A stretch of DNA of 64,000 nucleotides from Candidatus Latescibacterota bacterium (GTDB lineage: Bacteria; Latescibacterota; UBA2968): positions 3,328,001 through 3,392,000 of the forward strand of contig OZ242311.1 of the NCBI GenBank assembly GCA_965207885.1, written 5' to 3'. Made by a program: the position numbers and the translations under genes. The notes under the pieces were generated by a model. That model made no database searches. It was not told the origin of the DNA and saw only the letters and a list, made by a program, of their open reading frames with translations. Shown in pieces: positions 15,061-19,380 of the stretch; positions within the stretch are counted from its first letter, which is position 1, and the number at the start of each line of letters is the position of its first letter.

Positions 15061-15093
15061 TGAACTGGCCTGAGAGTCGGCTAATTGTCCACC
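15061..15093. repeat. 33-bp palindromic intergenic element, copy 1
   Basis: tgaactggcctgagagtcggctaattgtccacc; 28/33 identical to 31438-31470. Confidence 0.7.
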
Positions 15094-15189
15094 ATTTCTC
15101 GCCTCACACTTCATCCTTCTCCCTTGACATCTCTTTTTTTTATCCTTATACCTCTTATCCCTAAACCGACTTATCAAAGGACACAACAC

Positions 15190-17883
15190 ATGACGCATTT
15201 CTATAAGTTTTCTGAAATCGGTCGTCTCCCTCTTCCAGGAGACAACGTCGGCATTGCAACCCGAAAACTGGACGGAGGCACGCAGATTATCCATTCAGAT
15301 CGCACCTTCGCGCTTCGGCACACCATCCTCGAAGGCCATCGCTTTGCCATCCAACCCATCGCGCCCGGCGACCCCCTCCTCTCGTGGGGCTTGCCCTTTG
15401 GCATTGCAACGCGCCATATCTATCCCGGAGATTATGCCTGCAACCCGGAAATCCTTGGCGCCCTTAAACTCCGCGATCTCGACTTTGAACTGCCAGACAT
15501 GCCCAACTTTGAAGATCGCATTGTTCCATACCAGATCACCACTTTTGAGGCAGGCGAGCAAGTCAAGCACTATGATCAGTGCGGTACTTTTCAGGGTTAC
15601 AAAAGACTGGGAGGTCGAGGCGTAGGCACGCGAAATAATATTGTTATACTGGGAACATCCTCTCGTACAGCGAGTTATGCCAAACAGCTCGAAGCGAGGT
15701 TACAAGACCGCATACGAGATTATCACAACATCGATGGCATTGTTGCAGTGGCCCACACCGAAGGCGGCGGCACTGAAATCCCCAATAACAAAGACCTCTT
15801 ATTGCGTACACTCGCCGGATTTGCAGTACATCCAAACGTCGGTGCGGTACTCGCGATCGACTATGGTCACGAAGCCATCACCAATCAGCACCTACGGGAA
15901 TTTCTCGCGCAAAACAACTATCCTATCGACCATGTCCTGCACCACTTTCTCACGCTTGAAGGCAGCTTTGAAAACGCGCTAAAACAAGGCGAAAACATCA
16001 TTGCCAAATGGCTGCCGCAAGTCCAGACAATGGTCCGCACACCCGAACCCCTATCGCACATCAAAATCGCACTGCAATGCGGTGGCTCAGACGCATTCTC
16101 GGGCATCTCTGGCAATCCATTAGCTTCGTGGGTGGCAAGAGAAATCATTCGCCACGGCGGCTCGGCCAACCTCGCAGAAACCGACGAACTCATCGGTGCA
16201 GAGTCCTATGTCCTCCAAAATGTCTCATCTTACGATGTCGCCCAATGCTTTCTCGACAAAGTGGAAGCCTATAAAACCCTCGCTGCATGGCACGGAACAA
16301 CGGCAGAAGGTAACCCTTCTGGTGGCAACAAATTTCGCGGCCTCTACAACATCGTCCTCAAATCAATCGGCGCGGCCATGAAGCGTCACCCGGATGTCCG
16401 TCTCGATTCTGTCATTGATTACGCGGCACCGATGACCGATCCGGGGTACTATTTCATGGACAGCCCTGGCAATGATCTCGAAAGTATTGCCGGACAAGTA
16501 GCTTCCGGATGTAATATGATCTTCTTTATCACGGGCAATGGCTCAATCACAAACTTCCCCTTTGTACCCACCATCAAGATCGTCACCACATCCGAACGCT
16601 ATCATCTACTCAGTAAAGATATGGATGTCAACGCGGGTGCATATCTGGACGGTACCTCCATGGACGACCTCGGCAGCGATATGTTTAACCTGACCTGCAA
16701 AATCGCCTCGGGAGAACGCAGCAAAGGCGAAAAAGCCGCACACGCACAAGTCTCGATATGGCGCACATGGCGACAGACCTCAACAGATCACCTGCCCGAC
16801 CTCAAGAACCGCCCCGAACCCCGGGGCGTGCCACTCGCTATTCAGGTATTGGACGCCGACGAACACAGCTTTGAAGCCATTCGCACCCGAGATGGATTTA
16901 CAACCGACCGCCTGGGCCTGATTCTGCCCACCAGCCTGTGTTCTGGACAAATCGCGCTGATGGCGGCAAAACGCCTCACAGAAAAGGGTCTGGGCCACGA
17001 TAAGGGCATCTCGCGCTTTGTCGCCCTCGCGCACACCGAAGGATGCGGCGTATCGGGAGAAGTCACCGAACGCCTCTACACGCGCACTATGCTCGGCTAC
17101 CTCACTCACCCTCTCGTACACACCGGCCTGTTATTGGAACACGGCTGTGAAAAGACCCACAACGACTATATTCGGCATGAACTAGACGACAGAGGGATCA
17201 GCCCCGATGCATTTGGATGGGCCAGTGTGCAACTCGACGGCGGTATCGAGGCCGTTCTCGACAAGGTCGAAGCCTATTTTATCAGCCAGTTCGTACAGAC
17301 TCCCCCTCCTGAAACCACTCCTGCCAGCCTGTCCGAACTCCACGTCGGTCTTCATGCTTCTGGTTCTATTTCCAATATAGCCGCGCAATCACTCGCCATT
17401 CTATCCCAATCCTTGATCGGTACAGGTGCCACGCTCATTGTACCCGACAATGCGAGTTTTCTGTCTCATCCTATATATCTATCCGAAGTTCTGGGCGACA
17501 CGCCACCTGTATCCACTCTTGCACACGGGCAAAATCCCACCCAACCGGGCTATCACATCATGGACAGCCAGACCGATCACTGGGTCGAAACCCTCACGGG
17601 ATTGGGCGGCACAGGCGTCCACCTCATCGTCGCCTACTCAGGGGATCACCCCTTGCAGGGGCACCCCCTGACCCCAATGCTTCAAACAACCGCCGAAGAG
17701 CGCGTCGCTAATTCCTATGGCGATGACTTTGACCTCATCTTCAACACCGAACCCAAACACAACGCCGACGCTCTCTTGCGCCAGATCATCTCCATCGCCT
17801 CTCGCCAATACACGCCCAAAACACCGCTAACGGGCAACACAGATTTCCAATTCACCCGAGGACTTCTGGGCGTCTCGATGTAA
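15190..17883 (+). CDS. UxaA/GarD family sugar-acid dehydratase (SAF domain plus internally duplicated GD_AH region)
   Basis: Start moved to MTHFYK (AAGGA RBS). DNVGIA/GHRFA SAF domain, GVGTRN, QCGGSDAFSG, NPSGGN..GL, DSPGND, and a second copy with TSLCS/HTEGCG/HGCEK. Confidence 0.85.
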   Translation: MTHFYKFSEIGRLPLPGDNVGIATRKLDGGTQIIHSDRTFALRHTILEGHRFAIQPIAPGDPLLSWGLPFGIATRHIYPGDYACNPEILGALKLRDLDFELPDMPNFEDRIVPYQITTFEAGEQVKHYDQCGTFQGYKRLGGRGVGTRNNIVILGTSSRTASYAKQLEARLQDRIRDYHNIDGIVAVAHTEGGGTEIPNNKDLLLRTLAGFAVHPNVGAVLAIDYGHEAITNQHLREFLAQNNYPIDHVLHHFLTLEGSFENALKQGENIIAKWLPQVQTMVRTPEPLSHIKIALQCGGSDAFSGISGNPLASWVAREIIRHGGSANLAETDELIGAESYVLQNVSSYDVAQCFLDKVEAYKTLAAWHGTTAEGNPSGGNKFRGLYNIVLKSIGAAMKRHPDVRLDSVIDYAAPMTDPGYYFMDSPGNDLESIAGQVASGCNMIFFITGNGSITNFPFVPTIKIVTTSERYHLLSKDMDVNAGAYLDGTSMDDLGSDMFNLTCKIASGERSKGEKAAHAQVSIWRTWRQTSTDHLPDLKNRPEPRGVPLAIQVLDADEHSFEAIRTRDGFTTDRLGLILPTSLCSGQIALMAAKRLTEKGLGHDKGISRFVALAHTEGCGVSGEVTERLYTRTMLGYLTHPLVHTGLLLEHGCEKTHNDYIRHELDDRGISPDAFGWASVQLDGGIEAVLDKVEAYFISQFVQTPPPETTPASLSELHVGLHASGSISNIAAQSLAILSQSLIGTGATLIVPDNASFLSHPIYLSEVLGDTPPVSTLAHGQNPTQPGYHIMDSQTDHWVETLTGLGGTGVHLIVAYSGDHPLQGHPLTPMLQTTAEERVANSYGDDFDLIFNTEPKHNADALLRQIISIASRQYTPKTPLTGNTDFQFTRGLLGVSM

Positions 17884-17908
17884 ATAATGGAACATACAGG
17901 AGATATCA

Positions 17909-18268
17909 ATGTCTAAAATCAGCTTTTACACCTGGAACAGATGAAGTTCCTGCCGCAAGGTGAAAGCGTGGCTTTCACGAGAAGGCGTGAATTTTGAGGA
18001 AAGGGATTTCTTCAAAGACGAGTTCTCTGAGGAAGAACTCCGAAAACTGCTCGGCGACACTCCGCCAACCGACATATTTTCTTGGCGAAGTCCTTCGGCG
18101 CGAACGCTAAAACTCAATCGGGAGGGCGTGTCGGCAGATGAACTGATTCGCCTCATGGTTGACCAGCCCCGGTTGATACGCCGGCCACTGATACACACCG
18201 GTGATCGGCTATTCGCAGGCACGGACAAAGAGGCGATGGCAGAGACATTCCCCGGCTACAATCTGTAA
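17909..18268 (+). CDS. Spx/ArsC/YffB-family thioredoxin-fold protein, probable selenoprotein (UxxC), 119 aa
   Basis: RBS CAGGAG, ATG 17909, MSKISFYTWNR-TGA(17942-17944)-SSCRKVKAWL, in frame with the 17960-18268 ORF. The TGA falls at the first Cys of the family CxxCRKA motif; LIRRPL near the C-terminus. Confidence 0.8.
17960..17978 (+). promoter_or_regulatory. Candidate bacterial SECIS hairpin
   Basis: GTGAAAGC-GTG-GCTTTCAC, a perfect 8-bp stem starting 15 nt after the in-frame TGA, with a G-first apical loop. Confidence 0.6.
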
Positions 18269-18274
18269 TTAAAC

Positions 18275-18306
18275 AAAAAAAGCCAGACAAAATATCTGGC
18301 TTTTTT
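18275..18306. terminator. Bidirectional intrinsic terminator
   Basis: aaaaaaagccaga-caaaata-tctggctttttt between convergent genes. Confidence 0.8.
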
Positions 18307-18321
18307 CACTTTACACTTCCC

Positions 18322-19380
18322 CTACCCGACCTTAACTTCCCGCCCCGTGCGCCCGGATTCAAACACCGCAGTAATAATTTCCACGGCCTGGCGCGCGCTT
18401 TCAAGGCCAATCATAGGCTCGCGGCCTTCATTGATCGCCCCGATAAGATCTTCGATAATCAACGTATGCCCATCTGAACTAACGGCCAGGGGATCTGCTG
18501 AAATATTCTTCTGTTTGTCTTCTTGATCGCCGTAAAAACCCAGCATCTCTGCTTCTTCCGATGCCTCGTTCTCACCCTGAATTTTCCAGGAAATCAACTT
18601 TGAAGCATCTTTCATAATCGACCCATTCTGGCCGTAAATAGTCACCAGTTGCGGAAGCCCTGGATAGCAGCAAGTCGTCGTATAAACCGTGCCAATTGCG
18701 CCATTCTTAAACTTGAACAACGCCACAGTCTGATCTTCTGCTTCGATATCGTGCCCAAAAACGCCAAACATACCCATCACAGACTCGACGCCGCCTGCAA
18801 GCCACTGAATCAAATCGACAGTGTGAACGCCCTGATTCATCAGCGAGCCTCCCCCATCGAGATCCCACGTTCCCTTCCACGATCCATGTGCGCCCTGATA
18901 ATAGCTATCCGCGCGATACCAGGGCAAATGGCCGTGAACGCCGATCAACTTACCCAGCTTGCCGCTATCAACCGCATCTTTAATCCGCCTGTTTAGAGGT
19001 TCCAAACGCGCTTGAAAAATACATCCGACCTTTACCCCGGCATCCTTCACCGCACCAATTAATTGGTCAACGCGCTCAGGCGTAATATCTGCGGGCTTCT
19101 CAACGATCATGTGCTTACCCGCATCTGCAGCCTGAATACCCAACTCGGCGTGCTTTCCAGACTCAACGCAAATATTGACGACCTGGACCTCATCATCCTG
19201 AAGCATCTCTTCATAACTCGTATAAGCTTTGCACCCGTATTCCTCAGCCGTCGGTCCCAAACGCTCCTCATCTAAATCGCACACGGCCACCAACTTCGCA
19301 CCTTCGGCCCGTGTGACAGACCGACAGTGATTCGTGCCCATACCCAGTCCAACAACGCCAAAACCCAGCTCTGCTGCCAT
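18322..19380 (-). CDS. Gfo/Idh/MocA family oxidoreductase
   Basis: GVVGLGMG, VEKP, GGGSLMNQGVHTVD. Confidence 0.92.
   Translation of the reverse strand: MAAELGFGVVGLGMGTNHCRSVTRAEGAKLVAVCDLDEERLGPTAEEYGCKAYTSYEEMLQDDEVQVVNICVESGKHAELGIQAADAGKHMIVEKPADITPERVDQLIGAVKDAGVKVGCIFQARLEPLNRRIKDAVDSGKLGKLIGVHGHLPWYRADSYYQGAHGSWKGTWDLDGGGSLMNQGVHTVDLIQWLAGGVESVMGMFGVFGHDIEAEDQTVALFKFKNGAIGTVYTTTCCYPGLPQLVTIYGQNGSIMKDASKLISWKIQGENEASEEAEMLGFYGDQEDKQKNISADPLAVSSDGHTLIIEDLIGAINEGREPMIGLESARQAVEIITAVFESGRTGREVKVG

Follow-up and report, generated by a model that had tools for sequence, protein, structure and literature searches.

A probable UxxC selenoprotein of the ArsC/Spx family with a covarying SECIS-like hairpin in a Latescibacterota genome

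Decoding of the in-frame TGA

Near the start of a short ArsC/Spx-family gene of a Candidatus Latescibacterota bacterium lies an in-frame TGA, and the question arises whether this codon terminates translation or is read as selenocysteine (Sec). The gene is located in the window analyzed here, a stretch of 64,000 nucleotides that is part of a single 6.23-Mb contig; its features are collected in Table 1. In the original prediction, a hidden selenoprotein with a ribosome binding site, an ATG start at 17909, a TGA at codon 12 and a U-S-S-C motif was proposed, and all of these were found upon re-reading of the sequence. With the TGA read as Sec, the product comprises 119 aa and contains the pair U12-x-x-C15. 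As had also been claimed, the list of open reading frames truncates the gene: only a GTG-started ORF (17960-18268; 102 aa) is given, so that strand beta-1 and the UxxC motif are lost. When the upstream 20-mers of the 19 genus orthologs were compared, purine-rich motifs were found at the position of the AGGAG in most of them.

Table 1. Coordinates of the features at the selenoprotein locus, numbered from the first nucleotide of the window.
Feature	Position	Strand	Remarks
Shine-Dalgarno-like AGGAG	17898..17902	+	6 nt ahead of the start codon; read directly
Predicted selenoprotein gene	17909..18268	+	ATG 17909-17911; 119 codons and stop TAA 18266-18268
UGA predicted to be read as selenocysteine, codon 12	17942..17944	+	translation gives N-R-U-S-S-C-R-K
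Putative bacterial SECIS hairpin	17960..17978	+	8-bp perfect stem, apical loop GUG, base 15 nt after UGA
Terminator-like hairpin	18276..18306	.	bordered by runs of A and of T; between the selenoprotein gene and the convergent Gfo/Idh/MocA gene
Gfo/Idh/MocA oxidoreductase gene	18322-19380	-	convergent with the selenoprotein gene

The terminator-like hairpin behind the gene folded with -14.2 kcal/mol (z = -6.08), and none of 200 shuffles folded as well. It was seen by folding and was absent from the list of a simple consensus terminator scan; weak, sub-threshold Rfam matches to terminator-bearing families fall on it. The one hit of that scan within the gene, at 17971-17986, coincides in part with the 3' arm of the SECIS hairpin and was discarded as not credible for a terminator.

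Orthologs with 74-92% identity were present in the genome itself and in 18 of 20 other genomes of the genus; genome G001 gave no match, and G013 gave a paralog-level match only. In all 19 orthologs, codon 12 is TGA and the N-terminus ahead of it is conserved. Since TGA serves as the ordinary stop codon in 9 of these 19 genes, the organism does not generally read TGA as an amino acid. Outside the genus, TGA occupies the site in homologs from two Dehalococcoidia MAGs (67% and 56% identity) and in a homolog with 35% identity from another family of the phylum. The 102 loci examined comprised 19 from the genus, 3 from other genomes and 80 from metagenomes, the latter having been retrieved with two peptide patterns, neither of which includes the Sec site. 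The site was reached in 100 loci (L139 and L143 end before it) and was TGA in 99 and TGC in one (L079). With Cys10 of Spx aligned there as well, TGA and Cys were found at the same column, in line with the original prediction. The coding sequence is conserved on both sides of the UGA: in 51 diverse family sequences, an N-terminal [FY]Y.W is followed, after the UGA, by xxC[RK]K, with Y7 and W9 conserved in at least 90% and C15 invariant.

If the TGA were a true stop, it would end a meaningless 11-codon ORF ahead of a GTG start at 17960, or the locus would be a pseudogene or contain an assembly error. Gene callers give exactly this arrangement. Of 262 database relatives, the best 120 all cover 86% of the query or less, and 12 aligned relatives start at residue 18 or later; hence, gene callers appear to truncate this subfamily everywhere. 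Against termination stands the conservation as protein, across phyla, of the 11 codons before and the 5 codons after the TGA. In addition, the GTG is replaced by the non-start codons GCG, ACG and GCA in many homologs, and the shortened product would have lost both strand beta-1 and the active-site motif. Two contigs from the RNA libraries of one study (X13 record 2, 17677-18005, and X5 record 5, 17932-18101) contain the TGA unchanged; thus, an assembly error was ruled out. RNA-library coverage is not proof of transcription, as DNA is possible in such libraries and the contigs show no transcript ends. The DNA run X6 gave no contig over 17898-17969 and carries no weight either way. The objection of a sequencing error, which had been named as a refutation of the Sec reading, fails in view of the 99 independent TGA loci and the contigs of the other study. 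Termination at codon 12 was therefore regarded as highly improbable.

Near-identical sequence over 17300-18600 was observed in runs of several studies labelled sponge metagenome and metatranscriptome. This suggests that the organism is a sponge-associated member of the Latescibacterota.

The Sec machinery implied by the original prediction was sought on the 6.23-Mb contig, where selA, selB, selD and tRNA-Sec were all found, each above its curated cut-off. Profile searches yielded 575 bits for selA and 386 bits for selB, which adjoins selA. The selD gene (369 bits; G000:C1:5699275-5700198) contains one in-frame TGA, so that SelD is probably itself a selenoprotein, and the gene is separated by about 100 bases from that of tRNA-Sec (70.1 bits; G000:C1:5699077-5699170). 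Another gene of the ArsC family, likewise with an in-frame TGA, was observed at G000:C1:1196665-1197015 (locus L151:666-1016). It encodes H-N-P-N-U-S-K-S, i.e., a UxxS motif, and its product shares 31% identity with the U12 protein. The same search returned TGA-bearing matches of similarly weak rank in other genomes of the genus.

The hairpin downstream of the UGA

In bacteria, the SECIS element is a stem-loop shortly downstream of the UGA, and its apical loop contains G (and U). A perfect 8-bp hairpin with a G-first loop had been predicted for the locus and was recovered: its arms (17960-17967 and 17971-17978) enclose the loop GUG (17968-17970), and 23 bases (17945-17967) lie between the TGA and the loop G. 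Folded by itself, a 65-nt stretch reached -22.8 kcal/mol (z = -2.89), with 2 of 200 shuffles folding as well; this single-sequence fold was modest and suggestive, not decisive. A lower-stem extension seen in the window's own fold was not kept in the orthologs and was left out of the element. A search of 17850-18320 against Rfam gave no SECIS or other family above threshold.

The comparative data show pairing in the putative element far beyond chance. For the covariation analysis, 84 distinct TGA-bearing 54-mers were aligned without gaps. The eight stem pairs could form in 92.1% of the cells, as compared to 33-60% when the 3' arm was slid by 1-3 columns. Changes on both sides of a pair were counted in 114 cells, as compared to 10-35 in the slid controls, and in none of 500 shuffles were the pairing, the covariation score or the number of double changes as high as observed. 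Compensatory changes occurred in five of the eight stem pairs, and RNAalifold, unaided, predicted seven of the eight. Across homologous loci, the stem was located at the same distance from the TGA. In the apical loop (columns 27-29), G was found at column 27 in at least 90% and T at column 28 in at least 70% of the sequences. The lone TGC homolog (L079) lacks the hairpin sequence.

Since the stem arms lie within coding sequence, part of the column conservation is due to protein constraint. The slid and shuffled controls indicate that protein constraint is not the whole explanation. Two of the pairs illustrate how synonymous third positions follow the K/R and V/A changes of the opposite arm. 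Column 23 is the middle position of codon 19 (K or R), and its partner, column 33, is the synonymous third position of Leu codon 22; A-U was counted in 43 and G-C in 38 sequences. In the other pair, column 20, at the middle position of codon 18 (V, A or T), has as its partner column 36, the last position of codon 23, with C-G in 35, U-A in 31 and U-G in 9 sequences. Within the genus, the sole synonymous variation in codons 16-25 was a change from UCA to UCG in two sequences, by which the pair is kept as G-U; in the rest of the gene, degenerate codons showed two to four variants each among the genus orthologs.

On these comparative grounds, the gene almost certainly encodes a genuine selenoprotein. 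The presence of the Sec machinery, the conservation of the TGA and the covarying hairpin together argue for SelB/SECIS-dependent synthesis. A SelB/SECIS-dependent selenoprotein whose U-x-x-C pair has a redox role was considered very probable, an assessment that covers this role and leaves the specific catalytic mechanism aside. During translation, the UGA of codon 12 would be decoded as Sec, with the hairpin 15 nt behind it recruiting SelB together with Sec-tRNA(Sec), as the comparative evidence suggests.

Protein family and possible function

The product was assigned to Pfam ArsC (PF03960) with an E-value of 6.5e-17 and 62.1 bits (gathering threshold 24), residues 7-112 matching positions 1-78 of the 79-position profile; the match to the Pfam glutaredoxin family was weaker. 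Within NCBIfam, the only cut-off passed was that of TIGR01617 (Spx/MgsR subfamily), and this pass was narrow (78.9 vs. 75.05 bits). All 51 family members matched TIGR01617 with E-values of at most 0.001, the window protein having the best one; thus, most of the others are probably under the cut-off. By sequence, the closest relatives of solved structure were Spx proteins (HMMER; E 3.4e-16, about 30% identity). The predicted membership of the ArsC/Spx family, with UxxC where the family has CxxC, was borne out, since U12 and C15 align with C10 and C13 of Spx.

An AlphaFold2 model built with the 51 family sequences had a mean pLDDT of 85.7. It predicts a beta-alpha thioredoxin-like core with the UxxC motif at the start of the helix spanning residues 13-24 and a last helix at 107-113. 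The best Foldseek match was Spx (1z3e_A; TM 0.83); YffB and further structures of the ArsC family came next (TM about 0.8). As all of these score about 0.8, Foldseek does not tell Spx apart from YffB or ArsC-like relatives.

A UxxC motif on a thioredoxin fold usually marks a selenoprotein as a selenol/thiol oxidoreductase. By analogy, the protein was judged, with somewhat better than even confidence, to be a catalytic selenol/thiol oxidoreductase and not an Spx-type regulator. The selenolate of U12 would attack an oxidized substrate, as expected from the fold, the motif and the general behavior of UxxC selenoproteins. A selenenylsulfide with C15 would then form and be reset by a cellular reductant. 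It counts against the catalytic reading that Spx, the closest characterized relative, is a regulator and not an enzyme.

The protein could accordingly be imagined as a 'seleno-Spx', i.e., a transcription regulator that senses the redox state, binds RNA polymerase in the manner of Spx and has a selenenylsulfide switch in place of the disulfide. Spx proteins are its best matches in both sequence and fold, the cut-off of the Spx/MgsR subfamily is passed, and the UxxC motif aligns with the Spx redox switch. Moreover, R60 and the R-P-[ILV] motif are conserved, with R92 and P93 invariant in the 51 sequences; however, conserved Arg residues of this kind are common to the whole ArsC family. All Spx equivalog models, as well as that of the YffB-type reductase, scored far below their cut-offs. 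One account gives as hallmarks of Spx the CXXC motif, G52, the RPI motif and, at residues 119-131, helix alpha-7, which contacts region 4 of sigma-A (PMC8501982). Another stresses G52 of Spx and Y263 of the alpha-CTD and states that Y263 does not occur in Gram-negatives (PMC2801614). Of these features, the window protein has the CXXC equivalent and R-P-L. G52, which in Spx lies at the interface with the alpha-CTD, has no counterpart, the HMMER alignment placing a two-residue gap at G52-T53 of Spx, and the chain stops at residue 119, so that helix alpha-7 is missing. On the side of the polymerase, the Spx contact residue Tyr263 is replaced by Ala in the RpoA of the genome (stretch V-R-S-A-N-C-L-K). 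The numbering was taken from a gapless match of query residues 4-79 to residues 235-310 of an RpoA chain identical to that in the Spx-TAC structure 7f75. A regulator of the Spx type was thus considered improbable.

Reduction of an oxyanion, arsenate or similar, in the glutaredoxin-coupled manner of ArsC and with Sec as the nucleophile, would agree with the membership of Pfam ArsC, with the location of U12 at the position of the ArsC nucleophile and with the conservation of R60 and R92. ArsC-type UxxS selenoproteins are listed in the literature, and one is encoded in this genome. This separate UxxS gene also speaks against the same role for the U12 protein, as do the score for TIGR00014 (ArsC; 39 bits vs. 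a cut-off of 106) and the invariant C15, which is typical of dithiol switches and oxidoreductases and not of single-Cys ArsC. No ars genes were found among the 103 flank ORFs scanned. An oxyanion reductase was therefore judged even a little less likely than a regulator of the Spx type.

These 103 flank ORFs derive from 64 loci and were retained from 135 listed, 32 ORFs of loci judged to be near-duplicates having been left out by hand. Upstream of the selenoprotein gene, an altronate/galactarate-dehydratase-like gene was present in 16 of the 19 genus loci, at distances from 25 nt to several hundred nt, and it was absent from the three most divergent ones. In the window, the gap is 25 nt, as had been stated, with the upstream ORF ending at 17883. 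This ORF (15085-17883, plus strand; 932 aa) contains both altronate/galactarate dehydratase domains in two stretches each and thus resembles a UxaA/GarD-like protein with an internal duplication or fusion; its score of 198 bits is far below the cut-off of the galactarate dehydratase equivalog (731 bits). In the flank ORFs of 60 loci outside the genus, no GD_AH domain was detected. Since the dehydratase neighbor occurs only in this genus, and there with a variable gap, the proposal of a functional tie in which the selenoprotein maintains the thiols of the dehydratase was left without support.

Other neighbors varied. Homoserine dehydrogenase was found upstream in 8 loci and a short-chain dehydrogenase downstream in 13. 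The genes for MsrA (L104) and MsrB (SelR; L119, following the homolog) occurred once each. In three metagenome loci (L119, L130 and L132), a heliorhodopsin gene immediately precedes the homolog, and in L130 and L132 a Staygreen-family gene comes after it. Ten loci (L068, L083, L085, L086, L089, L093, L097, L098, L137 and L146) have mutS upstream and/or a mutL-type gene downstream, the selenoprotein gene lying between the two in L068, L086 and L093. The mutS/mutL-flanked loci belong to one lineage, which includes a Dehalococcoidia MAG. Overall, the neighborhood is variable and uninformative on function. The mutS/mutL placement may be plain lineage synteny; it also hints at a non-catalytic role. 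A Sec-based redox sensor that governs transcription or another housekeeping process through a partner interface unlike that of Firmicute Spx was given a chance as low as that of the oxyanion reductase. If this were true, it would be the first selenoprotein regulator. The preferred reading of the protein as a selenol/thiol oxidoreductase was retained.

Comparison with known selenoproteins and with Spx

The finding corrects a systematic annotation error, as the best 120 of 262 database relatives are truncated and lack the active site. Among the NCBI curated families, there is no model for this Sec-containing subfamily, and the present data could serve as the seed for models of both the protein family and the RNA element. 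For Latescibacterota, a phylum of which little is known, the finding contributes a well-supported selenoprotein whose SECIS is backed by covariation. For a specialist on selenoproteins, it is one more thioredoxin-fold UxxC selenoprotein, useful and unsurprising. The literature searched gave no match for the instance in Latescibacterota, the covariation-backed SECIS or the near-exclusive use of Sec. In a search for selenoproteins in Latescibacteria, both terms occurred together in no title or abstract among the matches listed.

Spx of Bacillus subtilis and other Firmicutes shares the position of the redox pair, R60 and R-P-[ILV] with the window protein. The latter differs from it by Sec in place of Cys10, by the missing counterpart of G52 and by the lack of the C-terminal helix and degradation tail. 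In addition, its host is not a Firmicute and has Ala at position 263 of the alpha-CTD.

Lists of selenoproteins have included ArsC-like members since 2006 (PMC1794560). Two reviews, from 2022 and 2026, name two such families, one of ArsC with UxxS and one termed 'arsenate reductase-like' with UxxC (PMC9312934, PMC13188914). The UxxS selenoprotein (TIGR00014-like; 'Arsenate reductase (ArsC) 1' in the GOS data) belongs to the same superfamily and has Sec at the equivalent position. It differs in having UxxS instead of UxxC and no resolving Cys, and the copy encoded in the present genome is 31% identical to the U12 protein. In the 2026 review, the 'Arsenate reductase-like protein, UxxC' is equated with NF041106 (PMC13188914). 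This model of an 'ArsC family (seleno)protein' (ArsC_rel_Se_1) has the ArsC fold and UxxC in common with the window protein. Since the window protein scored 32.9 bits vs. a cut-off of 85, and the best of the 51 family members had an E-value of 4.7e-10, the window clade represents a different subfamily.

The closest precedent is 'Arsenate reductase 2' (cd03032, UxxC) of the GOS data, a group for which Zhang and Gladyshev (2008, PMC2398784) give 42 sequences with Sec and 238 homologs with Cys. The set is heterogeneous: most of the reads displayed belong to another subfamily, and three reads in Dataset S1 carry the motifs of the subfamily described here, [FY]Y.W..U.TC.K, ERD[FI]F, RSP and EPRLI[RK]RPL (PMC2398784). 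The three reads have the ArsC/Spx fold and the UxxC of the window protein, and Sec was predicted in them from TGA/Cys pairs. The GOS sequences are marine shotgun reads, reported with no genome context, SECIS covariation analysis or host assignment; in comparison, the gene described here lies in a complete Latescibacterota genome. Thus, this kind of selenoprotein is already known, and its subfamily, which has no curated model and is truncated in the databases, was already seen in the GOS data of 2008.
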